Positions 12,636 through 62,021 of a stretch of 64,000 bases of DNA are shown in pieces. The DNA is from a virus. Its lineage: Duplodnaviria > Caudoviricetes. The stretch lies in IMG/VR virus record IMGVR_UViG_3300048881_000780. The stretch is one strand, 5' to 3'. Below the pieces are notes generated by a model that was given only the letters and a program-made list of their open reading frames with translations, was not told the DNA's origin and searched no databases. Positions within the stretch are counted from its first letter, which is position 1; each line of letters begins with the position of its first letter. The translations under genes were made by a program, and so were the position numbers.

Positions 12636-12665
12636 TAATTTCCCATGGCCATTTATATTTATAAT

Positions 12666-12872: not shown

Positions 12873-12878
12873 AAACTT

Positions 12879-12966
12879 GTAGGAACGACCAATTCTAGGT
12901 CAAATCTCCTACTCCTTATGTGTGTGTATGTGTGTGTAAGAAGAGACTCGAAAGAGTCTCTTTTTA
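12879..12966 (+). ncRNA. putative ~88-nt sRNA copy 1 (5' hairpin, anti-SD/GU-rich seed, terminator)
   Basis: GTAGGA/TCCTAC and GACC/GGTC stems; CTCCTTATGTGTGTGTATGTGTGTG; AAGAGACTC-GAAA-GAGTCTCTT plus T-run; near-identical to 43906-43995 and 58316-58405. Confidence 0.8.
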
Positions 12967-13022
12967 TTTTAAGATTTACATTTATAACGCATCATGTTAA
13001 AATAAATTAAAGCGAGGTAGAT

Positions 13023-14424: not shown

Positions 14425-14448
14425 GTCTTTTTCACACACGGAGATAGT

Positions 14449-16546: not shown

Positions 16547-17523
16547 TGAAGATTTACGAGAGAATTAATGCTACTCACCTATTCTTTTATGGCGGGATTT
16601 TCTCTCAGTGGTACACGCAGGCACCATTTTATGATCAAGAACTAAATTTAAGATTCAGCTCTGGTGAGCAATACATGATGTATCGAAAGGCCCTCTTATT
16701 TAAAGATAGAGACGCTATGGCCAAAATAATGAGTACAACCTCACCAAAAGAAGTGAAAGATCTAGGAAGAGATGTTTCAGGCTTTAAACAAGATATCTGG
16801 GATGCTCATAAATTAGATATTATTGTAAGAGCTAATTTTCTTAAATTTTCGCAAAACGAAGCCCTCTTAAATAAAATGAGAAAGTATGCTCATTTAAAGT
16901 TAGTGGAGGCCTCTCCTGTCGATACTATATATGGAATAGGACTTAAATCCACTGACTCTAGAGTATTGGATGAAAGTAAGTGGAGAGGAGAGAATCTTCT
17001 CGGTGTGGCCTTAATGAGAGCGAGAGATTTAATTTTAAATCAAAACATTTCTCCTCATATTGTCATGAGAAACGCTAGCATTATTAATGCTAGTGAAAAT
17101 ATTATTGCGCATGGGTGCAATACTCAAGGGGCCAGTGGAGCAGGAATTGCGAAGTATATGGCCTTAAAATTTCCCCTATCAGATCGAGAGTATAAAAAAA
17201 GATGTAGAAATGGCGATTTTATACTTGGAGATATTCTCTTTTATCGGGAAAACTCTAAAATAATAGCCAATTGTGCCACTCAGGAGTACTACGGTCGAAG
17301 ACTTAAGATGGATAAGGATTCTGTAGAAAATAGATATCAGGCCATAAGACAATGCTTAACAAGGATTTATGTCAACGCAAAAAGAGAGCAAATGAGCGTG
17401 GCCATTCCAAAACTTGGGTGTGGTAGAGCACGCCTGGATTGGAGTAGAGTATTAAATATAATAAAAGAAGTATTTCACGATTATCCAATTACGATATATT
17501 ATATAGAAGATAAATATTGTTAG
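16546..17523 (+). CDS. NADAR (YbiA-like) - macrodomain fusion
   Basis: FSQWY, EQYMM, KFSQN, LVEASP.D.IYGIG, GENLLG; then IAHGCN..G..GAGIA and IPKLGCG. Confidence 0.92.
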   Translation: MKIYERINATHLFFYGGIFSQWYTQAPFYDQELNLRFSSGEQYMMYRKALLFKDRDAMAKIMSTTSPKEVKDLGRDVSGFKQDIWDAHKLDIIVRANFLKFSQNEALLNKMRKYAHLKLVEASPVDTIYGIGLKSTDSRVLDESKWRGENLLGVALMRARDLILNQNISPHIVMRNASIINASENIIAHGCNTQGASGAGIAKYMALKFPLSDREYKKRCRNGDFILGDILFYRENSKIIANCATQEYYGRRLKMDKDSVENRYQAIRQCLTRIYVNAKREQMSVAIPKLGCGRARLDWSRVLNIIKEVFHDYPITIYYIEDKYC

Positions 17524-19264: not shown

Positions 19265-19805
19265 CTGTCCATTTTTTAATTGATGATATTTTTATTTTTG
19301 AGAACGGAATTTTGTTTTTTAAATTTAATAAGGCCTTTCTTCTTGCGCTGAACTTATCTTTTAAATCATCTTTCTCGAGTTCATGGAGGGATTTATTGGA
19401 GTTACCTGGAATAAACAAATTATCGAACCCAAAACCAATTAACTCTCTATCTGGATCAATTAAACCAGAAGTGCCACCTCTGAAAATATAGATATACTCT
19501 CCATCTGAATATGCAATAGAGGTGATCCAAACAGCAGGAGATTTTTTCTTTAACTCTTTTAATTTAAATTTAATATCTACAACCTCATCCCACTTCTTAC
19601 TTGATCTATCAAAAATCTCTAATACAGTATCTTCAACAAGGTGAAATTCGCGACCAAGTTCAAGTACTTTATGGATAATCACTTCATCTTTATCACCCCT
19701 GACTTCTTTTAAGTCTGGCCCTTTTGATGCCGTAAGATTTGGAAGAATTCTCTTAAATTCTTTAAGTTTATCTTTATTAGATGTAAGTAATGTAAATTTC
19801 TCCAT
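19245..19805 (-). CDS. Ham1/ITPase non-canonical purine NTP pyrophosphatase
   Basis: TSNKDKLKE, LVEDT, GFGFDNLF, SARRKAL motifs. Confidence 0.88.
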   Translation of the reverse strand: MEKFTLLTSNKDKLKEFKRILPNLTASKGPDLKEVRGDKDEVIIHKVLELGREFHLVEDTVLEIFDRSSKKWDEVVDIKFKLKELKKKSPAVWITSIAYSDGEYIYIFRGGTSGLIDPDRELIGFGFDNLFIPGNSNKSLHELEKDDLKDKFSARRKALLNLKNKIPFSKIKISSIKKWTGGYQGE

Positions 19806-19814
19806 ATTTAAACC

Positions 19815-20834
19815 CTACGCCAATGCCTCTAACCAGGTATTAATGGGTTTGCTCTCACTGGCCCCATCAAATCCTTTAATAAACCTAAGAGACTTGGAAT
19901 TAAACGTAATATTACTTTTACACTGGTACAAAAAAGACTTTCTCTTAATATCATCAGAGATCGTAAATCCTGAGAAATTTACCTTTGGGGCCACAAAACC
20001 ATTAAACATATCTGCGATAGTGATTGCGGAATTGGATTTAAATCCACGTAGATCTAAATTTCTTTCAAGCGAACACCTTGAGAACATTTCTATAAAGTTT
20101 TGAGCTTTTTCAGTTTTAAAATTTGATAGATTAAGATTTTTAAAACTAGAATCCTGAAACATTCTCTCCATGGTTTTACAATTTCTAGTATTGAAATTTG
20201 AAAGGTCTAAATAATCTAAGTTAAGTTGAGAAAACATCGCAGTCATACAAAGAACTTTTTCTGTGTTAAATGATTTGATGTTCAGCGATTCGAGACTGTG
20301 CATCTCAGAAAACATATGTCCCATATAGAGAACATTAGCTGTGTTAAATGAACTTAAATCTAACCTTTCTAGAGAATAGAGTTCACTAAAGGTACCTGAC
20401 ATATCGTTTACATTTGAGGTGTCAATATTGAGAGTTAATTCCTTAATATTATGACATCTAATAAACATTTCAGAGATACTACTAACATTACTAGTATTAC
20501 AAGTTCCAGAGTTAAATTTTTTGAGATCGAAACAATTTGCAAAGCTATACCATAGATTTTCCCATTCGCAATCGCCAAGATTTTTTACCTCTATAAGGGT
20601 GGCACCTTCAACATTTGAAGATACCCAACTCTTTAAGTTTCCAGCTATTGAAATGGTATAAATACCAGCTGTCTTATAGGTGTGGGTTGCCTTGACGTTA
20701 CCAGTAATATTTTCTAAGTCAGATCCGTCTCCCCAGTCTATTAGTAAGTTGACATCTATTCCATTATTAGTGGGGAGAGTGATCTTATTGTCGCTACCAA
20801 TAGTTTGCCAGCAACTTACAAATGATTCTTTCAT
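19815..20834 (-). CDS. PKD + DUF285-type LRR protein
   Basis: IDWGDG, LGDCEW, repeats; ends NTWLEALA. Confidence 0.9.
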   Translation of the reverse strand: MKESFVSCWQTIGSDNKITLPTNNGIDVNLLIDWGDGSDLENITGNVKATHTYKTAGIYTISIAGNLKSWVSSNVEGATLIEVKNLGDCEWENLWYSFANCFDLKKFNSGTCNTSNVSSISEMFIRCHNIKELTLNIDTSNVNDMSGTFSELYSLERLDLSSFNTANVLYMGHMFSEMHSLESLNIKSFNTEKVLCMTAMFSQLNLDYLDLSNFNTRNCKTMERMFQDSSFKNLNLSNFKTEKAQNFIEMFSRCSLERNLDLRGFKSNSAITIADMFNGFVAPKVNFSGFTISDDIKRKSFLYQCKSNITFNSKSLRFIKGFDGASESKPINTWLEALA

Positions 20835-20857
20835 TATTAACTTCCTTGTTGTGCTTA

Positions 20858-21967
20858 TCATGAAATAGACTCCAGCCAAGTGTTTTTAGTATCCTCTTGG
20901 TTTTGGTCTGTTGTGAATTGACTTCCTTCCTTGAAGTAATCTATATTTTTCTTATATCTCGTTTTTATTTTTACATTTGCTTTACTCTTATAGTGAACAA
21001 AGTTATGAAAGTTTGCGACAGCGCTAAATCTAAAATTTGATAAATCTATCTCTTTTAAATTATCTGAATAGAAAAATATTGCACCAAAATCTACGACATT
21101 AGATGTTTTAAATGATCCTAGATTTACTTCCTTTAAATTATCACAACATTTAAACATTGCTCTCATATCAGTGACACATTCAGTATTAAAGCTCGATAGA
21201 TCTAGCGACACTAGGCCCCTGCACTTTTCAAACATTCCCTGCATATCAAGGGCGCTATCAGTTCGCATGTGATCTAGATTTAAATTCTGTAAATTATAGC
21301 AATTTTTAAACATTCCTCTGAAACTTAAAACACTACCAGCATCAAATCTCTCTAAATCTAGAGAGAGTAAGTTATTCATGCCAGAGAACATTCGAGACAT
21401 TGTTGTAACATTAAAAACATCTAAGTTCCTTAAGTCGAGATGATTTATTCCGGATTTTCTAAACATAACTTTCATATTTTCAACAAATGAAGTATTCAAA
21501 TTATCAATATTTAAATTATTTAAATTAATAGTTTTGTGAAATAATCCTTCCATATTAATAACAGAGCTCGAGTCAAAGGTGGAGAGATCTATATCTGTAA
21601 GATTCTTACACCCATGAAACATATTTTTCATAGATGTAACATTTGAAGTATTACAGCTGCCACTGTTAAATTTTGTCAATGATTTACAGTTTTCAAAGGA
21701 TCCTGCGAAAGTTATCCAATCGCAATCACCAAGATCAAAAACTTTTACTACTTGTATGGATGGATAATCTAAAATATGCATGGCCTGAATCTTACCATAG
21801 AAGCAAATGGTATACTCTCCATTTTCTTCGTAGGTATGATCTAGCTCATTACTGGAAATGATTCCATCACCCCAATCTATAGCGAACTCTACGTCTGTTC
21901 TATGAAACTTAAGAGGGAGAGTTACACTACCCTTTTTCACACGCCAACTGGCCCTAAATGGTTTCAT
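20858..21967 (-). CDS. PKD + DUF285-type LRR protein
   Basis: IDWGDG, LGDCDW, repeats; ends NTWLESIS. Confidence 0.9.
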   Translation of the reverse strand: MKPFRASWRVKKGSVTLPLKFHRTDVEFAIDWGDGIISSNELDHTYEENGEYTICFYGKIQAMHILDYPSIQVVKVFDLGDCDWITFAGSFENCKSLTKFNSGSCNTSNVTSMKNMFHGCKNLTDIDLSTFDSSSVINMEGLFHKTINLNNLNIDNLNTSFVENMKVMFRKSGINHLDLRNLDVFNVTTMSRMFSGMNNLLSLDLERFDAGSVLSFRGMFKNCYNLQNLNLDHMRTDSALDMQGMFEKCRGLVSLDLSSFNTECVTDMRAMFKCCDNLKEVNLGSFKTSNVVDFGAIFFYSDNLKEIDLSNFRFSAVANFHNFVHYKSKANVKIKTRYKKNIDYFKEGSQFTTDQNQEDTKNTWLESIS

Positions 21968-22070
21968 TTTATCTATATTAATAACAAGCCTCTCTAGATT
22001 TGATATTAACATATTTTTTATTTTCTAACAAGTTGCGTTAAAAACAATCAATAATTAGACATAGTTAGAA

Positions 22071-22481
22071 TTAATCTTGATAGGTTTCTGATTTTGTTAG
22101 AACCTCGGTACCAGTGTACTTAAAGTCTGGCAATAGATCCTCAACATCTTCTATCTTTCTAGAAGGAATCCAGAGAGAATTCTCCCCATTTTTTAAGAAG
22201 ATTTCTAAAAACTTATAATCCAGACTATTGAATATTAAACTACCATCCGACATTAAGGAAAATTGATATTCTTTATTTAACTCTTCAATATAGTAATTAA
22301 TATCACTTTCTTTCTTCTTAACTAAGTCTACAACGGATTCACTATCATCAAATTTTGACATTTCTTCTTTATAGTTATCTAGGAATTCTTTCTTTGAGTC
22401 TATGTCTACTTCTATTTTTTGGAAAATATCAACTTCCGTAACCCGCTCTATTACACTAGTTTTATATATAGTCTTCTTCAT
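22071..22481 (-). CDS. hypothetical protein
   Basis: AAGGAG RBS. Confidence 0.65.
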   Translation of the reverse strand: MKKTIYKTSVIERVTEVDIFQKIEVDIDSKKEFLDNYKEEMSKFDDSESVVDLVKKKESDINYYIEELNKEYQFSLMSDGSLIFNSLDYKFLEIFLKNGENSLWIPSRKIEDVEDLLPDFKYTGTEVLTKSETYQD

Positions 22482-22512
22482 TGCTACTCCTTTAAGTACT
22501 TATCGTAGAATG

Positions 22513-23454
22513 TCACTCTAGAGATTCTAGCCAGGTATTTCTTATTGATCCTGAGATTGCATTTGGAATATCGTGAAAATACAATTTCCCATTCTTTACT
22601 GGTAATAGTATTTTACAGAGGACATCACAAAATATACCAATATTAGATCCAGAAAAGTCAAAAGAGTATAACTTAAGTTTTTTAAGAGAGCTACACCCTC
22701 TAAACATATAATCCATATCATTTGCATTGCTAGTATCAAAGAAATCTACGTTTAATCTTAAAAGAGAATTGCAATGAGTGAACATATTTCTAAATGATTC
22801 TACACTGTAAGTCTTAAAGTGGTTTAGATCTAGAGACTCTAGACTGTGGCAATCTTTAAACATCTTCTCCATTGATTCAACTTTTGAAGTATTAAAATTT
22901 GATATATCTAAGAAGTTAAGAGCACTAGCTCCTTCAAACATCGACTTCATTGATTTAGTGTTTTTGGTACAAAATGAAGATAAGTCTAGATATTTAAGCC
23001 TTTTACAATTGGAAAAAAGATGCCTCATATTCTTTACATTATATGTATGAGAGTTCGATAAAGAGACTCTCTCTAGAGATTCACACTCATCAAACATAAA
23101 GCTCAAATCTTTTACTGTTTTTGGAATTGCTCCATTATAACTTTCGAGCATTTTACAACCATAGAAGGCATTTGATAAATCCTGCCAATGGCAGTCACCT
23201 AAATGATGAACGGCCAAAAGTTCACACGATGAGACTTTATAAGATCTCCAAAGTCCTAATTTTCCAGATATTGTTAATGTGTAATTGCCATTAATTTCAT
23301 ATATATGAACGGCGTTTGGGTCATCGTAGGAAGTTATATGATCACTTTTCCCATCGCCCCAGTCGACAGTAAAGTCGTAATCAAACCCCTCAAATAGAGG
23401 GAGAGCTAAAACTCTCTTTTGGACTAGCCAGGTACTAACAAAGTTTTTTGACAT
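22513..23454 (-). CDS. PKD + DUF285-type LRR protein
   Basis: VDWGDG, LGDCHW, repeats; ends NTWLESLE. Confidence 0.9.
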   Translation of the reverse strand: MSKNFVSTWLVQKRVLALPLFEGFDYDFTVDWGDGKSDHITSYDDPNAVHIYEINGNYTLTISGKLGLWRSYKVSSCELLAVHHLGDCHWQDLSNAFYGCKMLESYNGAIPKTVKDLSFMFDECESLERVSLSNSHTYNVKNMRHLFSNCKRLKYLDLSSFCTKNTKSMKSMFEGASALNFLDISNFNTSKVESMEKMFKDCHSLESLDLNHFKTYSVESFRNMFTHCNSLLRLNVDFFDTSNANDMDYMFRGCSSLKKLKLYSFDFSGSNIGIFCDVLCKILLPVKNGKLYFHDIPNAISGSIRNTWLESLE

Positions 23455-23568
23455 AGAATAAATCCTCTATGTCTATTATAAAGGAATACTTAGTGAGATT
23501 TCGTTTTTAACTTTTAAGTAAGAGATGCGTCTATTTCGTTATATTAATGATAGTTAGGCATATAAATT

Positions 23569-24513
23569 TTAGCTAATGGCCCTAAGCCAACTATTACAGT
23601 TTTTATTATCCGTGACGATATTAAGATTTGATGATGCAAACATCTCTAGATACTTCCTCGATACCTTCACTAAAGCATTAGAGTTAGTTATTTTCGATTT
23701 TGCTAGGGACTCATCGAACTCGAAGTTTTTAAGATTAATTTTCTTAAGTTTAGGAGTGTCATAGAACGCCTTTGTAATATCTTTAAGTTTGGAGAACTTT
23801 CTGTGTCCAAAGTTGATGGATTCGAGGTTCCTACAGTTAAAAAATGCTCTATTCATATGATTAATTTTATGGGGCCTAAAATTTGATAAATCAAGTTTTC
23901 TTATTCCCGAAGAGCTAAAGACGCACGAAAAGCCAATGAGATTTTCCGTATTAAATTCACTAAGATCGACTTCTCTTAAACTTTTAGTACCGTGAAATGC
24001 TGAAAACATTTGAGTTAAAGAAGATGAATTTATTTTACCAAAATCAACATTTTCTAACTTTTCGCAGCCACGAAACAAGCTAGACATAATTTTAACATTA
24101 GAAAAATCAAAGGTTGATAAATCTGCGGTTTCAAGTTTTTCACATTCTGAAAATAAACCGTTTAAATTCTTTATTTTGATCGTATCACAATTGCCTGCGA
24201 CAAACTTTTTAAGGTTAATACAGTCACTAAATAAAGATCCGACATTATACCAATTTAGATCACCAAATTGAAGAACCTCAATCAACTTAGCTTTATCTCT
24301 TAGCTTTATAAATAGTCCTCTGTGAATTGACCCTGATACTCTTATTGTGTAAATTCCAGGTTCTTTATACTTATGAACAGCTGAGTTCTTGCTATTTTGA
24401 TCAATACTCCCATCACCCCAATCAATTGTAAGCCCTGAGGCATCTTGTAAGAAAAAAAGCGTCTCATTACTATTGGTAATTTGCCATCGACTAATAAAAT
24501 CAAAGTTACTCAT
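23569..24513 (-). CDS. PKD + DUF285-type LRR protein
   Basis: IDWGDG, repeats; ends NSWLRAIS. Confidence 0.9.
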   Translation of the reverse strand: MSNFDFISRWQITNSNETLFFLQDASGLTIDWGDGSIDQNSKNSAVHKYKEPGIYTIRVSGSIHRGLFIKLRDKAKLIEVLQFGDLNWYNVGSLFSDCINLKKFVAGNCDTIKIKNLNGLFSECEKLETADLSTFDFSNVKIMSSLFRGCEKLENVDFGKINSSSLTQMFSAFHGTKSLREVDLSEFNTENLIGFSCVFSSSGIRKLDLSNFRPHKINHMNRAFFNCRNLESINFGHRKFSKLKDITKAFYDTPKLKKINLKNFEFDESLAKSKITNSNALVKVSRKYLEMFASSNLNIVTDNKNCNSWLRAIS

Positions 24514-24649
24514 TTTAAATTCTCTTTCTTCTTATTGGCAATTATGATGTGACCACTACTTGAATAGTGATAGCTTGGAACTGGGAGCTTTTTAAATAAG
24601 CTCATTATTTTAAAATTCCTTAAAAATTTAAAGAGTTTCATAGTTATCC

Positions 24650-24862
24650 TTAGATTTGATAATCAGTAAGAATTTTAAGAGGGAGATAGAACCATCCCAT
24701 AAGAAAAGACCCTATCGTCTTTAAAAACAATTCTAAGAGATTACTGGCCTCATCTAGCTGACTGAACATATAGACACCACTAAATAACATATAAAGAAAT
24801 ACCCATAATTGTTCATGGGTTTCACTTTGACTTACTTTGTATGAATTTAGTTGCTTCTTCAA
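24650..24862 (-). CDS. small two-TM membrane protein
   Basis: Paralog of 24877..25086 (GWFYLPL vs GWLYMPL). Confidence 0.6.
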   Translation of the reverse strand: MKKQLNSYKVSQSETHEQLWVFLYMLFSGVYMFSQLDEASNLLELFLKTIGSFLMGWFYLPLKILTDYQI

Positions 24863-24876
24863 ATCTTCATCCTTAA

Positions 24877-25086
24877 TTAAAATATTGCATTATATAACAG
24901 ATTTAGTGGCATATATAACCAACCAGTAAAGTAACAAGATATAAAGAGAGCTAAAGATTCTATTAAGCTCGATTGCGACTCTAAGTTTTGGTACATATAG
25001 TGACATCCAATTATTTTATATAATGTTATGGCAACATCTAGCTTACTCTCTCTAAACTGAAATTCTTTTGATGCGATACTTGTCAT
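24877..25086 (-). CDS. small two-TM membrane protein
   Basis: Paralog of 24650..24862; GAGG RBS. Confidence 0.6.
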   Translation of the reverse strand: MTSIASKEFQFRESKLDVAITLYKIIGCHYMYQNLESQSSLIESLALFISCYFTGWLYMPLNLLYNAIF

Positions 25087-25164
25087 ATTAACCTCTGTAC
25101 TAAGTTCTATCTATATTTTATAATATTTAACATATTATGTCAAAAAATAAACTATGGATACAGT

Positions 25165-25365
25165 ATGGTTTTTGAAATATTAATAATATGGATACTCCTT
25201 GGGTCACTTTCTTGTAATATTGCTTGGATGTTACAAATGAGGGCAGCTAGTTCTGTAGATATGCGCTATAGTCCCTATTTATTGGGCATTATGTTGTTTT
25301 TAGTGTTCGGTCCATTCTCGCTACTGATTAGTAAAATATTTAAAAGGATTAAAAATGCAAAATAG
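25165..25365 (+). CDS. small membrane protein
   Basis: Two hydrophobic segments. Confidence 0.55.
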   Translation: MVFEILIIWILLGSLSCNIAWMLQMRAASSVDMRYSPYLLGIMLFLVFGPFSLLISKIFKRIKNAK

Positions 25366-25729
25366 AGTTTCAAGTATTACAGAAGCTAGAGATATAATTG
25401 ATAAATTTCACGCTCGAAAAATAATGATTCATAATGGGAAAAGGTGGAGTGTTGCCTCAGTGAAAAGAATTATCCCTATGATTAGTAATTACCCAAAAGG
25501 GCCAATAGATGATATTGAAATCCTAATTAATAAAGAAAAGAATCACTACTTTTCAGCACTCTGTTTATTTGGAAAAAGATCATGGGTTAAAGATATTAGG
25601 ATTTGTGATGATTATAATAGAAATTCCCTAAAGATGGTAGCAATTCATCCTACTCCTAAAAATGATGAGATGATCATTAGAGTGGCCAGATTTATTAAAT
25701 TAATTTACTTAAAACAAAAGACGAAATGA
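25355..25729 (+). CDS. hypothetical protein
   Basis: 124-aa ORF overlapping neighbours. Confidence 0.6.
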   Translation: MQNRVSSITEARDIIDKFHARKIMIHNGKRWSVASVKRIIPMISNYPKGPIDDIEILINKEKNHYFSALCLFGKRSWVKDIRICDDYNRNSLKMVAIHPTPKNDEMIIRVARFIKLIYLKQKTK

Positions 25730-26574
25730 GTTCTTTTAGATTTGTAATAAATATTCCCAATGATGATACAGTCGTAAGTATGAGAGTTTATGAAGAGTAT
25801 CGTTATAGTTTTAAAGTTAATTGGGGAGATGAATGCTTTGGTAGTTACACTTATCGAAACAAGAGTCGCAACATAATACATCATACTTTTGAAAAAGCTG
25901 GAGAATATACTATTGTAATGAGTGGCAGGATTGGCAAAATCAGAGCGGAGGAAACTTTATTTAAATATATAACTGAGGTTATAGATTTAGGAGATTGTAA
26001 GTGGCAGGATTTATCATTCATGTTCGCTGAATGTAATAATATGGTTAGATTTAAAGGTGGCATTACTTCTGATGTTAAATCAATGGATCATATGTTCACA
26101 GATTGCAAGAAACTGAGTTTTTTAGATATTTCTAGTTTTGACACTTACAATGTAACTAATATGAGAGGTATGTTTACAGGACTCTCCAAACTCAGTCATA
26201 TTGACGTTAGTCACTTCAACACCTTCAATGTTACGGATATGTCGCATATGTTTAGAGGTATGAAATCACTTAGACATTTAAGCATATCTAACTTTCGATT
26301 TAAAGGCCCTGTCAATATGGGCCTTAGTTTTGATGATTTGAACTCCTGTGAGGTATTGGATCTAAGACACTTAGATTTTAGTAAGATAGATCTATACTTA
26401 ATTAATGATGTTAGAAGTTATCAGAACTGTTTTAAGTATGGACCAAAGAAGGTAATTGTTAAGCTAGAGGATTTTTGTAAGTACTTTAAGGGTAATCCGC
26501 GCGTTTACGGATTAGTTGAAGATAGAAGAAAGAATAGCTGGTTAAACTCGCTAGATATCGAGGATTTCAAATGA
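25726..26574 (+). CDS. PKD + DUF285-type LRR protein
   Basis: VNWGD, LGDCKW, repeats; NSWLNSL near C-terminus. Confidence 0.9.
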   Translation: MSSFRFVINIPNDDTVVSMRVYEEYRYSFKVNWGDECFGSYTYRNKSRNIIHHTFEKAGEYTIVMSGRIGKIRAEETLFKYITEVIDLGDCKWQDLSFMFAECNNMVRFKGGITSDVKSMDHMFTDCKKLSFLDISSFDTYNVTNMRGMFTGLSKLSHIDVSHFNTFNVTDMSHMFRGMKSLRHLSISNFRFKGPVNMGLSFDDLNSCEVLDLRHLDFSKIDLYLINDVRSYQNCFKYGPKKVIVKLEDFCKYFKGNPRVYGLVEDRRKNSWLNSLDIEDFK

Positions 26575-26894
26575 AAAAGCAAATTATAAAACTTAATTCC
26601 CACCTAATACCAAAAGTAAAGAGTGCTAGAAAAATGGCCACTACTAGACTTGGAATAAAGAGTAAGTATCATGTGGGCCCATTTGTAATTGAAGATGCGA
26701 GTGATTCCGATAAAATTTATGATTTTTCACTTTATATTTGTAGAATAGAATTAATTCGATTTAAAGAAATTGATATAGATCTCGCGAATGTTGAGGGTTA
26801 CGATTATGTTGATGATTTCAAGGCAGAGTTAGTGAAAATCTACGGAAAGATAAAAGAAAGTGATTTTCTAACGGTGATCTATTTCTCCTCATAA
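26571..26894 (+). CDS. ASCH domain protein
   Basis: KMATTRLG, LANVEGY, ELVKIY, VIYF pattern. Confidence 0.75.
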   Translation: MKKQIIKLNSHLIPKVKSARKMATTRLGIKSKYHVGPFVIEDASDSDKIYDFSLYICRIELIRFKEIDIDLANVEGYDYVDDFKAELVKIYGKIKESDFLTVIYFSS

Positions 26895-36883: not shown

Positions 36884-37768
36884 ATGAATAGACCTTTTGA
36901 GTTCGTGATTGATAATAGGTTTACAAACGAAGATACTTTTGAACTATACTTATTTGAAGATATTAATTATGACTTCTCTATTGATTGGGGCGATGGATCT
37001 ATTTCCTCAATAAGTAATAATGACAAAAGCTGTTCCCACGTCTATAAAAATAAAAAAAAATATACTATTAAAATTTGGGGAAATGTAGAGGTCCTACATT
37101 TTTCTTGGAAATCTAAAAAACAAATAGTATACGTTTTAGACTTAGGTGATTGTAACTGGAAATCTTTAAATGCCATGTTTCTTTCATGTTCAAATCTTAT
37201 ATCATTTCGTGGAGGGGTTACCTCAAGTGTTGCGGATATGAGTCGAATGTTTTACAGATGTTCTTCATTACATGATTTAGATTTAAGTAGCTTTAATACT
37301 TCTAATGTGACCAATATAAATTCAATGTTCAGTGGTTGTACATCTCTAGAGAATTTAAATCTATTAAATTTTAATACATCAAATGTATTAACTATGAGTT
37401 TTGTTTTTAATAAATGTTCTTCTTTGTTGAATTTAGATTTAAGTAGTTTTAATACATCCAAGGTGACTAGCATGGATTTAATGTTTAATAGATGTACATC
37501 TTTAGATAATTTAAATCTATCTAGCTTCAATACTTTAAATGTTAGTGATATGACAGGTATGTTTAGACGTACTTTTTCAATAAAGTACCTAGATCTAACT
37601 AACTTTTGCTTTAACTCTCCAAAAATTCAAAACTTTTGTAAACTTGGCCCTAAAAAAATAATCGTCAAAAGACCATATAAGAAGAAGTATTTTAAGAAAG
37701 ATGAGAATGTATTCTCTAGTTCTATAGATATTTCTAGTAACTTATGGATAAATTCACTGACCGACTAA
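36884..37768 (+). CDS. PKD + DUF285-type LRR protein
   Basis: IDWGDG, LGDCNW, 26-aa repeats; ends NLWINSLTD. Confidence 0.92.
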   Translation: MNRPFEFVIDNRFTNEDTFELYLFEDINYDFSIDWGDGSISSISNNDKSCSHVYKNKKKYTIKIWGNVEVLHFSWKSKKQIVYVLDLGDCNWKSLNAMFLSCSNLISFRGGVTSSVADMSRMFYRCSSLHDLDLSSFNTSNVTNINSMFSGCTSLENLNLLNFNTSNVLTMSFVFNKCSSLLNLDLSSFNTSKVTSMDLMFNRCTSLDNLNLSSFNTLNVSDMTGMFRRTFSIKYLDLTNFCFNSPKIQNFCKLGPKKIIVKRPYKKKYFKKDENVFSSSIDISSNLWINSLTD

Positions 37769-37822
37769 AAAACCTATTTACACTCATAACGCTTCGTGTT
37801 AAAATATTAACAAGGAGTTTCT

Positions 37823-38755
37823 ATGACAAAAAAAGCATCACCTAATAAGGTAAAAAGCACAAAAACATTTAAAATTGGAGAAGTTGAACTTCCTGTTAGA
37901 GAGGGGGATTCTACTTTTGTTCCAAAGATTAATGAGGCATTTTACTTCACAGAAGTATCGCATTGTATTGCTCAAGATATTGTTGAAAATAAGAGAGTTC
38001 TATTAACTGGTCACTGTGGAACAGGAAAGACCTCTAATCCACAGCAGATTGCTGCGAGGATTAATCAACCTGTTACTAGGATCAATTTAAATGGTCAGGC
38101 CACAATTGGTGACCTTGTAGGGTTTTGGTCTGTAAAAGGTGGTGAAACTGTTTGGATTGATGGTGCGCTCCCGATGGCAATGAAAGAGGGACACTGGTTA
38201 ATTTTAGATGAAATTGACTTCGCAGAACCAGCAATTCTCTCAATTTTAAATGGCGTACTTGAAAAAGATGCACCACTAGTTTTAAAAGAAAAAGGAACTG
38301 AGATTGTAAGACCTCATAAAGATTTTAGAATTTTTGCTACGGCCAATACCGTTGGTGTTATGCAAGAGTTTAGATTCCTATATCAGGGAGCAAATATCTT
38401 AAATGAGGCATTTATAGATAGATGGAGAATCTACTTTGTAGATTACCTAGAACCTGATCAGGAAGTAGATGTCCTGATTAAGACTCTAGGACTAGAAGAG
38501 AAGAGAGATAAGGTAGAAAAGGGTATTAGAAGTGCCGTAGAGGTCGCTAATATGGCCAGAAGAGCTTTTGAAGAAGAAACTCTATCATGTACCTTTTCTA
38601 TGCGAAAACTGACTGATTGGGTCGAATTAATGTTTAAATATAAGGATCCAATTAAGGCCTGTAATATGGCCATTAAAAGTAAAGTCAGTCGCGTTGATGG
38701 AGATGCCATTTCTTCGATCATTCAGCGTGTATTAGAAGATTGTGAACAAGATTAA
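37823..38755 (+). CDS. CobS/CbbQ-like MoxR-type AAA+ ATPase
   Basis: Walker A GHCGTGKT, Walker B LILDEID, FRIFATAN, AFIDRW. Confidence 0.92.
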   Translation: MTKKASPNKVKSTKTFKIGEVELPVREGDSTFVPKINEAFYFTEVSHCIAQDIVENKRVLLTGHCGTGKTSNPQQIAARINQPVTRINLNGQATIGDLVGFWSVKGGETVWIDGALPMAMKEGHWLILDEIDFAEPAILSILNGVLEKDAPLVLKEKGTEIVRPHKDFRIFATANTVGVMQEFRFLYQGANILNEAFIDRWRIYFVDYLEPDQEVDVLIKTLGLEEKRDKVEKGIRSAVEVANMARRAFEEETLSCTFSMRKLTDWVELMFKYKDPIKACNMAIKSKVSRVDGDAISSIIQRVLEDCEQD

Positions 38756-38790
38756 ATTTCCCCTCAGTGGGAAAGAAACCCCTTAAGTAG

Positions 38791-38822
38791 AGGGTCTGGC
38801 ATTACGTCAGGCCCTTTATTTT
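38791..38822 (+). terminator. intrinsic terminator
   Basis: AGGGTCTGGC/GTCAGGCCCT stem followed by T-rich tail. Confidence 0.6.
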
Positions 38823-38835
38823 AAAGAGTTTATAT

Positions 38836-40263
38836 ATGACAACTAGACCTTTCAAATTCAAAATTAAAGTAAATAGAGATGAGATATTCGCATTTAATTT
38901 ATCAAAAGAAGAAGTATCATATGACTTCACTATTGATTGGGGTGATGGGGTTAAAGGCTCTGTAAATAGTAAATCCTGCAAGTGTGAACATACCTATAAA
39001 AAGGGTGGCGAATTTACTATTACAATTAATGGTAATGTAGAGTCTATAAACTTCGAGAATGAGTCAAAAAGGCTGATTATAGAAGTTCTAGATTTAGGCG
39101 ATTGCAACTGGAAGAGTCTTTATTTTATGTTTGGCAATTGTTCTAACTTGACCTCATTTTCTGGTGGAATAACTAATCGAGTTGTAGATATGGCCTGTAT
39201 GTTTTACGAGGCTAGCTCTCTTAAGAGATTAGATTTATCAAGCTTTGACACCTCTAATACTCGGGATATGCAATCTATGTTTGCAGAAATCAGCTCTTTA
39301 GAGGAATTAGATATATCAAATTTTGAAACATCTAATGTGACGGATATGCGCTTTATGTTTTCAGGAGCTACCTCTCTTGAAAAATTAGATCTATCCAGTT
39401 TTGATACTTCTAAAGTAACAGATATGAGAAACATGTTTAATAGAGCTAACTCTCTAGTAAATTTAGATTTATCCAGCTTTGATACTTCTAATGTTAGAAA
39501 TATGAGCTATATGTTTAATGAATCTAGCTCACTTAAGGATTTAAATTTATCAAATTTTAATACATCTAAAGTCACGGATATGAGTCATATGTTCTATGGA
39601 TCGTGTTCATTTAAGAATTTGAATATATCAAATTTTAATACCTCTAAAGTTCAAGATATGAGTCATATGTTCTATGAAGTTAGCTCTCTAGTGGATCTAG
39701 ATTTATCCAGTTTTGACACTTCTAATGTTATAAACATGAGCTACATGTTTAGTGGAGCTACAGATTTAATAAATCTAGATATATCAAGTTTTGAAACCAC
39801 TGAAGTTGAATATATGAAATGTATGTTCCATGGAGCTAGCTCTATAGTAAGCTTAGATTTATCAAGTTTTAATACATCTAAAGTGACGAATATGAGTTAT
39901 ATGTTCTGCTACACTACCTCTTTAAGAAATTTAGATATAACTGGTTTTAGTACTTTTGAGGTAAAAGATATGAGCTTTATGTTTCATGGAGCAAGTTCTC
40001 TAGTGAATTTAGATTTATCAAATTTTGATACTTTTAATGTTTCTGACATGTCTAGTATGCTCGCTGGTGCGACATCTATTTCAAGTTTAGATTTAACAAA
40101 TTTTAACTTTGATGAAGTTGATGTGAATATGTTTGAGCTTAATGGTCCTCTAGAAATTATCGTTAAGAAGAAATTTAAAGAAAAATATTTTAAAGATAGC
40201 GAGAACGTAATATTTAAAACACTTAATTTAGTGTCCAACTCATGGATAGATGCTATTTCTTAA
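38836..40263 (+). CDS. PKD + DUF285-type LRR protein (longest repeat array)
   Basis: About 12 26-aa repeats; ends NSWIDAIS. Confidence 0.93.
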   Translation: MTTRPFKFKIKVNRDEIFAFNLSKEEVSYDFTIDWGDGVKGSVNSKSCKCEHTYKKGGEFTITINGNVESINFENESKRLIIEVLDLGDCNWKSLYFMFGNCSNLTSFSGGITNRVVDMACMFYEASSLKRLDLSSFDTSNTRDMQSMFAEISSLEELDISNFETSNVTDMRFMFSGATSLEKLDLSSFDTSKVTDMRNMFNRANSLVNLDLSSFDTSNVRNMSYMFNESSSLKDLNLSNFNTSKVTDMSHMFYGSCSFKNLNISNFNTSKVQDMSHMFYEVSSLVDLDLSSFDTSNVINMSYMFSGATDLINLDISSFETTEVEYMKCMFHGASSIVSLDLSSFNTSKVTNMSYMFCYTTSLRNLDITGFSTFEVKDMSFMFHGASSLVNLDLSNFDTFNVSDMSSMLAGATSISSLDLTNFNFDEVDVNMFELNGPLEIIVKKKFKEKYFKDSENVIFKTLNLVSNSWIDAIS

Positions 40264-40284
40264 TTTAACAACCAGGGAGATTAT

Positions 40285-40554
40285 GTGGAAAAGGAAATTC
40301 TAGTTTGGGAAGATAAGACTTATGATCAAATACCTCTTCAAGATAACCCAGCCACATGCTCTGTGGATGAATATGGAAGAATAGAATGTTTTATAATTTG
40401 TCTATCCGACTCGAAATTAGTGAAGCCAATGGTTGCACTCTATAAAGTTAATAATTTTAAAAGTGATAAGGTTACGGTCGTTAAGACTTTTCACGATTTC
40501 GAGTACGCTCTTTCTTGGGCAAAGGTCTTAAATTTTGAGGAGTCGAATAAGTAA
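40285..40554 (+). CDS. hypothetical protein
   Basis: GGGAG RBS. Confidence 0.6.
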   Translation: MEKEILVWEDKTYDQIPLQDNPATCSVDEYGRIECFIICLSDSKLVKPMVALYKVNNFKSDKVTVVKTFHDFEYALSWAKVLNFEESNK

Positions 40555-41051
40555 TGGACTTTTTAAAGAAGCTTGAATTTTTAATTACTCAAAATAAAGA
40601 GAATTTACTCGATTCACATTTGAAGTATGGAGGAGTTCGAGTGACCTGTATTTCACTATCAAATGACAAGAGTTCAATAGAAGTGGAGCTAGATACTGGA
40701 TCACTAGCTTTTTCTCTAGAAGTTGATCACGAAAGTTGTTTTGAGTGTGGAAATAGTGAATTTCATGCAACTCAAGAATACCGAGTAAATATCATTGTTA
40801 ATCAGAACGGAGAGTTTTTAAGAAATAGATTTAATGATATGGAGCGATCTCTAGAAGATGCTGATGTACCCAAGGGTCCATTTAGTTGTACAAAGTGCAG
40901 TAAACAATATAGTGAAATAAAAGATGGCGCCATATTAGATAGGATGATTGAAATTACTGAAGAGAAGCTACGAGAACTAGGAGTAGGCCTCTTTAATAGT
41001 TATGATAAATTTGAAGAAGCGGTATTTAACCATGAACAAAGTAACAACTAA
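40554..41051 (+). CDS. hypothetical protein with Zn-ribbon
   Basis: CFECG and CTKC pairs. Confidence 0.65.
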   Translation: MDFLKKLEFLITQNKENLLDSHLKYGGVRVTCISLSNDKSSIEVELDTGSLAFSLEVDHESCFECGNSEFHATQEYRVNIIVNQNGEFLRNRFNDMERSLEDADVPKGPFSCTKCSKQYSEIKDGAILDRMIEITEEKLRELGVGLFNSYDKFEEAVFNHEQSNN

Positions 41052-41691
41052 GCATACCTCTTTTGAGTTTGAAGTAAATTTATCTAGTGGTAATTTCGTT
41101 ATGTTTCATGTAGATCGAAACTTTGATTTCAAATTTAATGTTGATTGGGGTGATGGTAAGCGTAATTATTATCACCGTGAAAAAGACGCTAGTACTATAA
41201 GTCATAAGTATAGAAATAGTGGATGCTATAAAGTTAAAATATCTGGAGATATCTACAAACTTAGGTTCGGAGTAAGAACTAAGGGTTTTATAACTAGAGT
41301 TTTCAATTTAGGTGATTGTGAGTGGATTGATACATCTTCAATGTTTGAAAATTGTGAAAAACTAATGAGTTTCGCTGGTGGCGCAACTGATGAGGTGACT
41401 GATATGTCTGCAATGTTTGCTGGTTGCTTTAGTCTAGTATTATTAGACTTGAGTACTTTTAATACATCAAACGTAGTATCAATGGACAGGATGCTGGAAA
41501 AGGTTTCCTTTACTCCCCCATTAGATCTCACTTCATTTGATTTTTCTAAGTCATCATTAGATAGATTTCTATATCTTGGTCCAGGAAAAGTGTTTGTCAG
41601 TAAAGTAGTAAAAAATAAGTATTTTAAAGGAATTGATGCCGTTAAATATAAGACAGGCACCAATTCATGGATAGAATCATTAAGTAATTAA
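41032..41691 (+). CDS. PKD + short DUF285-type LRR protein
   Basis: VDWGDG, LGDCEW; ends NSWIESLSN. Confidence 0.88.
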   Translation: MNKVTTKHTSFEFEVNLSSGNFVMFHVDRNFDFKFNVDWGDGKRNYYHREKDASTISHKYRNSGCYKVKISGDIYKLRFGVRTKGFITRVFNLGDCEWIDTSSMFENCEKLMSFAGGATDEVTDMSAMFAGCFSLVLLDLSTFNTSNVVSMDRMLEKVSFTPPLDLTSFDFSKSSLDRFLYLGPGKVFVSKVVKNKYFKGIDAVKYKTGTNSWIESLSN

Positions 41692-41706
41692 TTTAGAACA
41701 CTCACA

Positions 41707-42225
41707 CTATTTCAGTGCTTTTAACCAGGCGTTTTCATTAGTTATTTCGATATTATTTTTTTCTTCAATGACTATCCCAAATAGATCATAGAATTCCTGA
41801 TCTGTTTGTTCATACCAACGATCTGACACAATATTTACCGTTTGATGAAATTCCTCTTCACTTGGATCTAGGTCTTTAAAATGCAACTCTTCTGGTAAAT
41901 ATTCACTGGCCCATTCAGATAGAGAATACTTATTGTCAATTCCATTGTGACAAAAGAATCCCGATTCCTCTCCGTCATCAGTATAACCAACGATATTTCC
42001 AATATATTCTAATTCCTCATTGATAGCGTTAATTACTCTATGAAAGTTTCTCCATTGGTCCATATCAATATGAGAAATTTCTGCTTTTATATCAAAGATA
42101 AGATCTTTATTTTTAGGTAATGGTGACTCTTTTCTAAACCAATTTGTTATAATCTCTCTTGCTCGATCATACGAATATTGGTCTTTAAATTGGATTTTTC
42201 CATTCCAGTAACTATATCTTGCCAT
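41707..42225 (-). CDS. hypothetical protein (family B) with C-terminal NxW tag
   Basis: Ends NAWLKALK; resembles 43217..43741 and the ORF at 63592. Confidence 0.7.
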   Translation of the reverse strand: MARYSYWNGKIQFKDQYSYDRAREIITNWFRKESPLPKNKDLIFDIKAEISHIDMDQWRNFHRVINAINEELEYIGNIVGYTDDGEESGFFCHNGIDNKYSLSEWASEYLPEELHFKDLDPSEEEFHQTVNIVSDRWYEQTDQEFYDLFGIVIEEKNNIEITNENAWLKALK

Positions 42226-42237
42226 AAATACCTTTAT

Positions 42238-43203
42238 TTAATTAAGAGAGTTCAGCCATGCATTTTCTTTTGATGCTACATACTCCCGATATTTTATATT
42301 TTCATATTCTTTGAAATATAATTTTTTATATCTTTTTTTTACAATTATTTCACTTGGACCATTTTCGCAGAAGGCCTCTAAGTTTCCATTATCAAATGAG
42401 AATCCGTATAAATCTAAACTAATTAAAGAGTTTGTACCTCTTAACATCTGGCGAAAATCCGCAACTCTGTCTGTAATGAAACTTGATAAATTTAAGCTCC
42501 CAAGAGCTCTAGTTTTGCAAAACATACTGTTCATATTGGTAACGCTGGAAGTATCAAATTTTGATAAATCTAAACTCGTTAGAGAGTGGGCATCATGAAA
42601 CATGTAACTCATATCTAAGACATTGGAAGTGTTGAAGCTAGAAAGATCTAAATCAACGAGTGAGTATGTATCACAAAACATGTATCTCATATTGGTGACA
42701 GATGAAGTGTTAAATGATGATAAATCTATTTTTGCAATCGAGTATATATCGCAAAACATATGGCTCATATTTGTAACAGACGACGTATCAAATGACGATA
42801 AATCTATTTTTACAAGTGATTTTGCATTAACGAACATATGACTCATGTCGGTAACATTTTTTGTTACCCCTCCCGCCAATGAGGTTAAGTTGTAACAACT
42901 AGAAAACATCTTATTAAAACTAGTCCAATTACAGTCACCTAAGTCTATGACTTCTAAAATACAAGGTCTTGACTCATTTTTAAAATTTATTGATCCGATA
43001 TCTCCCGTAATTTTTATAGTGTACTCTCCCTCTTTGTCATATAGATGGTTACAATTAAGGGAGCCTTTGTATCCTGTTTGACTGATATTTCCATCTCCCC
43101 ACTCAACAAAGAGGAATTTCTTATCATCACTTGAGTTTTCTATAGAAAAAGAGAAAGACTTTAGTTTATCTATTTTTATTTTAAATATAAATGGTTTTTT
43201 CAT
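42238..43203 (-). CDS. PKD + DUF285-type LRR protein
   Basis: VEWGDG, LGDCNW, repeats; ends NAWLNSLN. Confidence 0.92.
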   Translation of the reverse strand: MKKPFIFKIKIDKLKSFSFSIENSSDDKKFLFVEWGDGNISQTGYKGSLNCNHLYDKEGEYTIKITGDIGSINFKNESRPCILEVIDLGDCNWTSFNKMFSSCYNLTSLAGGVTKNVTDMSHMFVNAKSLVKIDLSSFDTSSVTNMSHMFCDIYSIAKIDLSSFNTSSVTNMRYMFCDTYSLVDLDLSSFNTSNVLDMSYMFHDAHSLTSLDLSKFDTSSVTNMNSMFCKTRALGSLNLSSFITDRVADFRQMLRGTNSLISLDLYGFSFDNGNLEAFCENGPSEIIVKKRYKKLYFKEYENIKYREYVASKENAWLNSLN

Positions 43204-43905: not shown

Positions 43906-43995
43906 ATAAAAAAGGGACTCTTTCGAATCCCTTTTTACACACACATACACACACATAAGGAGTAGGAGATTTGACCTAGAAGTGGTCGTTCCTAC
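43906..43995 (-). ncRNA. putative GU-seed sRNA copy 2
   Basis: Reverse-complement near-copy of 12879-12966; promoter -35 at 44030-44025. Confidence 0.8.
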
Positions 43996-44224
43996 AAGTT
44001 TATAATATCGGCCCTAACGCAGGCCGTCAACATATAAATCACATATATTTTATTTAATTACTCTATTTTTTAGTGATATTTATCAGTTAAACCTAGTAAC
44101 TTAAGAAGAATTTATTCCCTATAAGTCTTTGAATTTTGGCCGATACATAAGAAATACAAGAAAAACTAAAAAAATACATAATTTAATTATTGACGCAATA
44201 TGTTAACATTGGTACTATAGTATT

Positions 44225-44351
44225 AAGAAATGAGCTGGCCACACACCAGCAATACTCACACTTTCAAAGAATTTAGAAAGAGTTTTTCTTGGCTTAAATA
44301 AGGGCACACTTAGGATTTGTGACCCTGGGATACACACCTGGGGTCACTTTT
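44225..44351 (+). ncRNA. CA-loop structured RNA, copy B
   Basis: TTGACG(44190)-N17-TACTAT; GCTGG-CCACACA-CCAGC; terminal 11-bp stem with ATACACA loop plus TTTT. Confidence 0.6.
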
Positions 44352-44365
44352 AAGATTGGTACAAA

Positions 44366-44524
44366 ATGAAGAATCTAATTATATTTTCCCTAGCGATAAT
44401 TTTAACATTTACGATATTTTACAAAGTATCTTGTCCAGTGGTGGAAATGGTCAAGGGAACAAGTTATGAAAATTTATTCTCCCCTTGCCTTAACTACTGT
44501 AAATTTCTAGATAATTTAAATTAA
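44366..44524 (+). CDS. 52-aa hydrophobic peptide (absent from ORF track)
   Basis: MKNLIIFSLAIILTFTIFYKVSCP...; weak RBS. Confidence 0.4.
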   Translation: MKNLIIFSLAIILTFTIFYKVSCPVVEMVKGTSYENLFSPCLNYCKFLDNLN

Positions 44525-58315: not shown

Positions 58316-58405
58316 ATAAAAAAAGGGACTCTCTCGAATCCCTTTTTTACACACATACACACACATAAGGAGTAGGAGATTTGACCTAGAATTGGTCGTT
58401 CCTAC
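58316..58405 (-). ncRNA. putative GU-seed sRNA copy 3
   Basis: Near-identical to copy 2; terminator loop GAGA; -35 at 58440-58435. Confidence 0.8.
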
Positions 58406-58602
58406 AAGTTTATAATATCGGCCCTAACGCAGGCCGTCAACAAATAAAAACAAATAAAAGTCGTTTAAAATGCATATTTATATGATTTTTAATACTTAGG
58501 AACGATAACTTAAGTGGCCAAAATTAGGCCGATTGTGAATATTTTTTGATATTTTATAGATTTTATTTTGACACAATGTGTTAATAAATATAAACTAATA
58601 TT

Positions 58603-58728
58603 ACACAAACGGAACGAAAGTACCGCTGTAGACGCACTCTTCGAGTTTTTCCCAACAAAAAGAGAGCACACATTCACACAATAAGGAAAGGCCCTCTCAC
58701 ACACACATCACACAAGGGGGCCTTTTTT
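58603..58728 (+). ncRNA. CA-rich structured RNA, copy C
   Basis: TTGACA(58568)-N17-TAAACT; CACACAATAAGGA; terminator AAAGGCCCTCT-[CACACACACATCACACA]-AGGGGGCCTTTTTT. Confidence 0.65.
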
Positions 58729-59052
58729 ATTAAATCCTCAAATTTTTCATCAATGATTTCTAGTAAGCTCTAAATAGCTCTCTAATGCACTTGGAATAAT
58801 AATTATCTAGTAACGAGATAGTTCTCTTAAATGACGTGAAAAGGCCTTTAAATAGCTCTAAGTATATACCTAGTGATGTTTCTAAGCTTATTCTTCTAGA
58901 TATACATACCTAGCTAATTAAATTGAATAAAACTGCCAATAAATTCAAACGTTTATAGATATACCTAGTTTTAGGTATATAAAGTAAAAAGTGATCACAA
59001 TATACACATATCTATTATATCTAAATGAATATACTAAGCTCTCTTGGTTTCA

Positions 59053-59113
59053 GATTATACCCGATAGGGTATAATCCCTTTAAAAAGCCTTGTTTTATAC
59101 CCTATCGGATATA
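59053..59113. promoter_or_regulatory. paired palindromic operator-like sites
   Basis: GATTATACCC-GATA-GGGTATAATC (59053-59076) and inverted TATACCCTATCGGATATA (59096-59113). Confidence 0.6.
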
Positions 59114-59166
59114 GTTTTCTGTTATCTAGGTATGAAAACTTATAATTAATTCATAGAGGTGTTCAT

Positions 59167-61440: not shown

Positions 61441-61587
61441 GTGGATCTCCTTAGAAATGTATATCTTTCTATACAAAATATGTATAAATACACACACAAT
61501 CTTAACACATTGCGTTACCATTGTAAATACAAATAAAAGAAATGTTTTCTAATCAAGTACTCGAAGTAACTTGATTAAAAATAGTAA

Positions 61588-61722
61588 TATTACGATTGTT
61601 TATATTACGATTGTTTATATTACGATTGTTTATATTACGATTGTTTATATTACGATTGTTTATATTACGATTGTTTATATTACGATTGTTTATATTACGA
61701 TTGTTTATATTACGATTGTTTA
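61588..61722. repeat. perfect 15-bp tandem repeat x9 (TATTACGATTGTTTA)
   Basis: Counted directly; last unit is the 3' end of 61710..62021. Confidence 0.95.
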
Positions 61723-62021
61723 ATTAGTTTGAATTTCTTAAAACTTAAAACATCGGAAATTGCTTCATCAAGATCATACTCTTCATTTAAAATCTCCAAT
61801 AGCCTTGATTCTGTGTAATTATTACCAAAAGATCCAGAGCACCACTCTCTAACTTCTCTTTCTGTAATAAGATTAAGTTGTTTATCTTCATCATCGGAAT
61901 ACTTATTAAAGCAAGAAGAGCAGTAATCTTTCTTGTCTTCCCTGTTTTCATAGTAATCAACGCTATCAACAATGTGAGAACCACAAATGTCACATAAGAG
62001 CTTGTCTTCTTCGTTATACAT
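61710..62021 (-). CDS. Zn-finger hypothetical protein
   Basis: CDICG and CSSC pairs. Confidence 0.65.
   Translation of the reverse strand: MYNEEDKLLCDICGSHIVDSVDYYENREDKKDYCSSCFNKYSDDEDKQLNLITEREVREWCSGSFGNNYTESRLLEILNEEYDLDEAISDVLSFKKFKLIKQS

Follow-up and report, generated by a model that had tools for sequence, protein, structure and literature searches.

In the window considered here (the whole stretch of DNA analysed, 64,000 nucleotides), three copies of a candidate small RNA (sRNA) gene with a GU-rich seed stand back to back with predicted divergent transcription units that present CA motifs in hairpin loops. The first-pass annotation had proposed a repeated module of two RNAs, in which every sRNA has a complementary CA partner that serves either as its sponge or target, or as a CsrB-like decoy for a CA-binding protein. 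The question is whether the divergent RNAs, here called units A, B and C after the adjacent sRNA copies, are indeed partners of the sRNA, and what each of them might do. The answer differs between the units, and there is one strong decoy candidate among them, unit C.

The element and the search for relatives

All results come from in silico sequence analysis of one large, otherwise unfamiliar element. Its source is a hydrothermal-vent metagenome. Among sequencing runs, the element turned up in two DNA runs, both of them vent metagenomes, and in no RNA run; the second DNA run contains the same organism at low depth, with zero variant letters. The GC content of the window is 32%. The flanks were walked along the public contig from about -27 kb to +73.5 kb relative to the window.

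No relatives of the sRNA were found in plasmids, phages, GTDB species genomes or viral contigs. The lone metagenome match (L002, 53% GC) is a chance 20-mer and was discarded. A protein-based search for related viral loci, performed with one test protein, found none. In a comparison of the window with Rfam nothing reached the gathering score, and around the three loci, at E up to 5, only far-sub-threshold noise was observed. Pfam was uninformative for the flanking genes.

A near-perfect tandem array of the 15-bp unit ATATTACGATTGTTT was found at 61587-61726 (9.4 copies, 99% matches), directly upstream of a divergent C5-methylase gene, where the public assembly breaks; the array looks like iterons or a centromere. 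A big paralogous cluster of DUF285/BspA-type leucine-rich-repeat genes with 78-nt repeat units occupies positions 13500-14200, 19800-26600 and 36900-42600.

A probable small RNA gene in four copies

Three copies of the sRNA gene lie in the window, and a fourth was found by walking the contig.

12844-12968, plus strand: sRNA copy A; promoter TTGACG-17-TATTAT, 5' hairpin, single-stranded CUCCUUAU(GU)n seed, terminator
43906-44030, minus strand: sRNA copy B; promoter, seed and structure as in the other copies
58316-58440, minus strand: sRNA copy C; promoter, seed and structure as in the other copies
About L004:4280-4400, minus strand: sRNA copy D, about 13.5 kb upstream of the window

Common to all four copies are the TTGACG-17-TATTAT promoter, the 5' hairpin, an unpaired CUCCUACUCCUUAU(GU)nAU(GU)n segment and the terminator. 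The seed combines the anti-Shine-Dalgarno core CUCCUUAU with a (GU)n tract. The inner hairpin of copy D has undergone compensatory changes (GACC/GGUC to GAUC/GAUC), and the terminator stems co-vary across the copies. Four copies with conserved promoter, seed and structure and with compensatory changes suggest that the sRNA gene is genuine and under selection.

The spacer of the sRNA promoter (12850-12866 in copy A, equivalent positions in B, C and D) contains a direct repeat GRCC...GRCC. Its R position co-varies, the repeat being GACC/GACC in copy A and GGCC/GGCC in copies B to D.

The -35 boxes of the divergent promoters A, B and C lie 89, 160 and 128 bp from the -35 boxes of the sRNA promoters. 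On the divergent side of copy D there are about 60 nt to the ATG of a 101-aa signal-peptide ORF, and neither the palindrome promoter described below nor CACAC is present there. The first-pass annotation had advised looking for partners at further sRNA copies; copy D has none, and thus the claim that each sRNA copy has a complementary partner is false. Neither sRNA copies nor CA clusters were found in the walked flanks beyond copy D, and about 19 kb of additional flanking sequence contained zero further ones.

An element-wide promoter palindrome

The three divergent sigma70-like promoters annotated at 12755 (minus strand), 44190 (plus) and 58568 (plus) were all found, at distances of 89-160 bp, and all three fit TTGACRCAATRTGTTAA.

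12727-12755, minus strand: predicted promoter of unit A, TTGACA-17-TATTCT, carrying the palindrome
44190-44218, plus strand: predicted promoter of unit B, TTGACG-17-TACTAT with TG before the -10 box, carrying the palindrome
58568-58596, plus strand: predicted promoter of unit C, TTGACA-17-TAAACT, carrying the palindrome TTGACACAATGTGTTAA

The promoter of unit C agrees with the consensus at 10 of 12 positions; its -10 box, TAAACT, is weak.

The related spacer of these promoters had been taken as a feature of the partners. However, the palindrome TTRAC-N7-GTYAA has 16 copies throughout the window against 0.39 expected, with a maximum of three in 100 shuffles. Twelve of the 16 sites have TTGAC on one side, and at ten TTGAC belongs to a -35 hexamer with a -10 box 17 nt downstream. 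The palindrome occurs upstream of many protein-coding genes, including further genes in the flanking loci, and the same core is found at L004:14418, immediately upstream of an RNase H gene. It also precedes the promoter of sRNA copy A; the version at copies B to D differs by one base. Since the palindrome is element-wide and occurs on the sRNA promoters as well, similarity between the partner promoters does not tie the partners together; it is best read as closeness to an element-wide consensus or operator, not as a mutual link.

The operator is near-consensus at unit C and degenerate at the sRNA promoters. A factor binding the palindrome could therefore set the sRNA-to-decoy ratio, by a differential repression that we infer from the operator sequences.

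CA motifs and pairing with the seed

The three units are as follows.

12588-12722, minus strand: unit A, predicted 5' leader of a protein-coding gene; hairpin 1 at 12689-12719 with loop CCACACU, hairpin 2 at 12665-12686
44224-44351, plus strand: unit B, about 128 nt; hairpin 1 at 44234-44250 with loop CCACACA, hairpin 2 at 44260-44281
58602-58728, plus strand: unit C, CA-rich, about 127 nt, ORF-less, with predicted promoter and terminator; folding z-score -4.67

The background frequency of CACAC outside these loci is about 0.3 per kb per strand. Units B and C contain four separate CACAC sites each, against about 0.04 expected per unit, and unit A contains one. All 53 CACAC sites on the two strands of the window were folded, including those antisense to the sRNA genes. 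Hairpins that are stable (-7 kcal/mol or better) and have CACAC or ACACA in the loop were observed only at 12702 (minus strand), 44240, 44333 and 58709; thus all four such hairpins in 128 kb of strand fall inside units A, B and C. The individual loops that had been pointed out, CCACACU, CCACACA, AUACACA and the CA loop at 58698-58714, fold as described. Compared with shuffled sequences, the folding z-scores are -3.1, -3.4 and -4.7 for units A, B and C, respectively.

The pairing potential of the seed was scored in two ways. In a naive duplex scan, the seed was compared with every 60-nt window on both strands (12788 windows, mean -10.3, sd 4.05). Unit C is the best non-self match (-30.3) and ties with a coding segment at 17091. 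Indeed, the GU-rich seed is promiscuous, and naive duplex folding scores coding segments equal to unit C: the segment 17104-17141 (plus strand), inside the gene at 16546-17523, forms a duplex of -30.2 kcal/mol with the seed, and the coding segment at L004:13851 has a naive duplex score of -32.4. The segments at 17091, L004:13851 and L006:7028, the last of which overlaps a promoter, were set aside as probable false positives of this promiscuous seed.

The second score was structure-aware, defined as the energy of the cofold minus those of the separate folds (ddG; 1983 non-self 128-nt windows, mean -6.5, sd 3.25). By this measure unit C occupies ranks 1 and 2 (-24.7 and -22.4), unit B has rank 17 (-16.1), and unit A has rank 561 or lower. 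In dinucleotide shuffles, which preserve the CA content, the observed value was reached in 2 of 150 cases for C, 16 of 150 for B and 91 of 150 for A. The pairing of unit B is insignificant against these composition-preserving shuffles, and that of unit A with the sRNA is not above background. The first-pass claim that every sRNA has a CA partner fails on this count too.

Unit C is a candidate decoy RNA

Unit C contains two sites that mimic a target of the sRNA.

58667-58688, plus strand: mimic site 1, agreeing with the antisense of the seed at 20 of 22 positions, the SD-like AAGGA included
58690-58728, plus strand: predicted terminator, 8-bp GC-rich stem followed by U6
58698-58714, plus strand: 17-nt terminator loop, mimic site 2, 14 of 15 positions identical to the anti-seed

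Within site 1, the annotated seed complement CACACAAUAAGGA is present at 58675-58687. The duplex energies are -30.1 kcal/mol for site 1, with a mean unpaired probability of 0.64, and -30.3 kcal/mol for site 2, with an unpaired probability of 1.0; both sites are predicted to be accessible. The alignment scores of the two sites against the anti-seed are 33 and 24, the maximum among 3965 control windows being 20. The match of site 1 extends to the non-repetitive AUAAGGA part of the anti-seed, and the terminator loop is of unusual length. The homology of unit C to the sRNA gene is limited to the seed and is present twice.

There is no start codon, and hence no ATG-initiated ORF, within unit C. The unit sits in a 1.4-kb stretch where no ORF reaches 80 aa, and the next ORF on the plus strand (74 aa, at 59167) begins about 440 nt downstream. 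Unit C occurs as a single copy, and no homologues of it were found.

The proposal of an sRNA with a sponge thus divides between the loci. The sequence supports it well for copy C, where the unit has two mimics, a predicted promoter and terminator, no ORF and the top-ranked pairing; it supports it weakly for B, and not for A and D. As modelled here, unit C is a credible anti-sRNA or sponge, similar to AgvB in its relation to GcvB.

The non-coding region downstream of unit C (58760-59150) contains many short palindromes and repeats: TATATACCTA / TAGGTATATA, and TTATACCCGATAGGGTATAA and CTCTAAATAGCTCT, each of which occurs twice. These may be protein-binding sites.

Units A and B

Unit A continues straight into an ORF. 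The gene starts either at the ATG at 12587, behind AAAGGAG, or at the ATG at 12635, and two more genes follow. Because of this arrangement unit A is predicted to be an mRNA leader, an ordinary one that has kept one CCACAC loop.

Unit B has, in addition to the two hairpins, the following elements in its 3' half.

44304-44315, plus strand: degenerate mimic CACACUUAGGA
44319-44347, plus strand: terminator-like hairpin of 11 bp with loop AUACACA, followed by only four U

Its best pairing sites (-22.2 and -19.8) are interrupted. Downstream of unit B lie a 52-aa hydrophobic ORF (44366-44524) and then a gene encoding 95 aa (44556). The 52-aa ORF has no SD box, is missing from the gene calls of the public contig and matches nothing in Pfam.

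Homology between units A and B covers the promoter and both hairpins (local alignment z 4.4), which in B corresponds to the 5' half. The CCACAC loop and hairpin 2 are kept, whereas hairpin 1 has a wholly different stem, of 13 bp in A and 5 bp in B. The hairpin previously reported as common to A and B was confirmed: the 22-mer has just two occurrences in the window, and the chance expectation is 0.01.

The 22-nt element ACTTTCAAWGRATTTAGAAAGA (12665-12686, minus strand; 44260-44281, plus strand) agrees at 20 of 22 positions between the leaders of A and B. This conservation far exceeds the needs of a 5-bp hairpin, and the element (CTTTC-N10-GAAAG) could be a protein- or DNA-binding site.

Units B and C share a colinear layout, in which GAGUUUUUC is followed by the CACAC...AGGA mimic and then by a terminator with a CA loop. 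However, homology between B and C is statistically unsupported (alignment z 1.7-2.5), and no relatedness of A and C was detectable by alignment. Judging from these sequences, unit B would at best be an intermediate or hybrid, acting as a weaker decoy or as an attenuator sensitive to the sRNA.

Candidate mRNA targets

Candidate targets were found both outside and inside the window.

L004:3244-3972 and L004:3956-4276 (L004:3180-4276, about -14700 to -13600 relative to the window): two-gene operon convergent with sRNA copy D, with a CA tract beside the SD box at both ribosome-binding sites
14433-14451, plus strand: weak candidate target ribosome-binding site, CA tract plus SD box CACACACGGAGAUAGUAUG; ddG -14.1

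The starts at L004:3244 and L004:3956 are the top two of 73 called gene starts for pairing with the seed (-27.9 and -31.2). Their ddG values, -20 to -25, are similar to those of unit C. The operon facing copy D thus supplies the sRNA with its best predicted mRNA targets. The leader of L004:3244 is similar to site 1 of unit C, as both have two CACACA blocks followed by (U/G)(A/U)AGGAA. The candidate targets in the window, 14433 and 27448, are weaker than the operon sites, and a pattern search of the window for a CA tract, an SD box and a start codon yielded essentially only 14433.

Model of regulation and alternatives

We propose that the multi-copy sRNA blocks leaders that combine a CA tract with an SD box, that unit C is a decoy, unit B a hybrid and unit A a leader, and that the promoter spacer is an element-wide operator. 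In our estimate this model has about an even chance of being correct. Motifs, folds, the ranking by complementarity and the homology of A and B can be read directly from the sequence; the model further supposes that the units are transcribed, that the predicted pairing takes place in vivo and that control runs in the direction described here.

The proposed mechanism is as follows. Firstly, the trans-acting sRNA would pair with leaders having a CA-rich tract beside the ribosome-binding site, and translation would be blocked. This action would resemble the way in which GcvB, through its GU-rich R1 region, acts on C/A-rich elements, and the anti-SD core would reinforce it. Secondly, unit C would present target-like copies at two places, the single-stranded linker upstream of its terminator and the 17-nt loop of that terminator. 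As it offers two target-like sites, it should titrate the sRNA or be co-degraded with it, relieving the targets. Finally, unit B would combine a 5' half similar to the leader of A with a 3' half in the layout of C.

A wider reading is that the element, mobile or extrachromosomal, carries a self-contained circuit, composed of the four-copy sRNA, targets on the same element and a two-site anti-sRNA that stands back to back with one sRNA copy and is controlled by the element-wide operator. Units A, B and C would then be evolutionary snapshots of the transition from leader to sponge, with A as a leader still, B as a hybrid and C as a pure decoy. We consider this version rather unlikely.

One alternative is that all three units are present or former cis-regulatory leaders controlled by the adjacent sRNA in the manner of tisB/istR, the ORF of C having decayed. 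The strong SD box of the ORF into which unit A runs, the ORFs after unit B together with the weak terminator of that unit (four U only), and the fact that the top predicted targets of the sRNA are true ribosome-binding sites are consistent with this. However, unit C has a strong terminator well separated from the next ORF, the CA loops of A and B are about 100 nt or more from the ribosome-binding sites, and the pairing energies of unit A are at background. Thus we regard this explanation as unlikely.

It is also conceivable that the units have no function, the CA tracts having arisen by slippage, partial inverted duplication or gene conversion, and the promoters and terminators being chance features of AT-rich intergenic DNA. 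Indeed, the lengths of the alternating CA/GU tracts differ between copies, promoter-like matches are no commoner than in shuffles of these regions, and homologues were not found. On the other hand, site 1 matches more than the repetitive part of the seed, and a passive duplicate would not be expected to show homology restricted to the seed and present in two places. In the promoter of unit C a near-consensus palindrome occupies the standard position, the units exceed shuffled sequences in structure (z from -3.1 to -4.7), and the loop and hairpin 2 were kept between A and B when the flanks diverged. Lack of function is therefore quite unlikely.

The original idea of a uniform module, in which each sRNA copy forms a repeated pair with a dedicated sponge or target RNA and the three divergent RNAs act alike, seems distinctly improbable. 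It agrees with the presence, at three of four copies, of a divergent unit with CA-bearing hairpin loops, with the location of all four stable CACAC-loop hairpins in these units, and with the homology of A and B and the colinearity of B and C. However, copy D is partnerless, unit A combines background pairing with the arrangement of an mRNA leader, the promoter motif is element-wide and the similarity of B and C is insignificant.

Two explanations are very unlikely. A type I toxin-antitoxin system at locus B, with the 52-aa ORF as toxin and the divergent sRNA as antitoxin pairing with its 5' UTR, would account for a small hydrophobic ORF that follows a structured leader divergent from an sRNA, but this ORF lacks an SD box, a gene call and a Pfam match, the complementarity is short and interrupted instead of extending over about 18 nt or more, and the same sRNA occurs at three other loci without such an ORF. 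The CA loops, whose motifs have a high unpaired probability, could be decoys for a CA-binding RNA-binding protein in the style of CsrB/RsmZ and CsrA, independently of the sRNA, but each RNA has one to three loops as opposed to many in CsrB-type decoys, no candidate protein was identified, and protein binding leaves the extended anti-seed match of site 1, including its SD-like part, unexplained; the CsrB-like variant of the first-pass annotation is thus not supported.

Comparison with known systems

The closest parallel to the proposed decoy is AgvB, an anti-sRNA from prophages and pathogenicity islands of EHEC that counters GcvB by imitating the CA-rich target of the latter (Tree et al. 2014, PMC4104026). 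Like AgvB, unit C is predicted to be a short, stand-alone, horizontally carried RNA, and its CA-rich region, a mimic of the mRNA target of a GU-rich seed, would occupy that seed in a duplex. Target-mimic complementarity of this type was found in unit C, is marginal in unit B (rank 17) and is absent from unit A. Unlike the AgvB case, the sRNA and its decoy here are back to back on one element, and unit C has two tandem sites, one of them in a terminator loop, and an SD-like part. No relationship between AgvB and unit C was observed in sequence or in Rfam.

The GU-rich seed of GcvB targets C/A-rich elements at or near ribosome-binding sites, and SroC, a sponge that titrates GcvB, is reportedly processed from a target mRNA. 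Both traits, the seed acting on C/A-rich elements near ribosome-binding sites and the titration by a sponge, have counterparts in the model proposed here. In contrast to SroC, unit C has its own predicted promoter, and in contrast to GcvB, the sRNA described here has an explicit anti-SD core in addition and occurs in four copies. No match to the GcvB covariance model was found around the three loci at E up to 5, and the sRNA is therefore no member of the GcvB family. Miyakoshi et al. (2015, PMC4474525) report SroC as a sponge of GcvB.

The general arrangement, an sRNA divergent from a complementary transcript with a structured leader, is also that of tisB/istR-1, shoB/ohsC and zorO/orzO. In tisB/istR-1 and shoB/ohsC, a small hydrophobic ORF is preceded by a structured leader and accompanied by a divergent sRNA. 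Unlike these type I toxin-antitoxin loci, the loci considered here have no convincing toxin ORF, one sRNA is repeated at four different loci, and unit C is ORF-less.

CsrB-type decoys display their binding motif, GGA, in many hairpin loops. The units resemble CsrB and RsmZ in having short motifs in the hairpin loops of a non-coding RNA, but the motif is CACAC instead of GGA, there are one to three loops per RNA, and the likeness leaves the complementarity to the sRNA unexplained.

To our knowledge, the anti-sRNAs and sponges described so far either arise by cleavage of mRNAs or tRNA spacers or belong to prophages, which use them to subvert an sRNA of the host. If the proposed model is correct, an anti-sRNA encoded beside its own sRNA, on the same element, would be a new form of a known type of regulator. 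As the sequences are short, the circuit could be tested directly in a surrogate host. An sRNA and its decoy placed back to back under one class of operator would constitute a compact, portable post-transcriptional switch, and the element would offer one of the rare opportunities to trace, in paralogous loci, how a sponge arose from a target leader.
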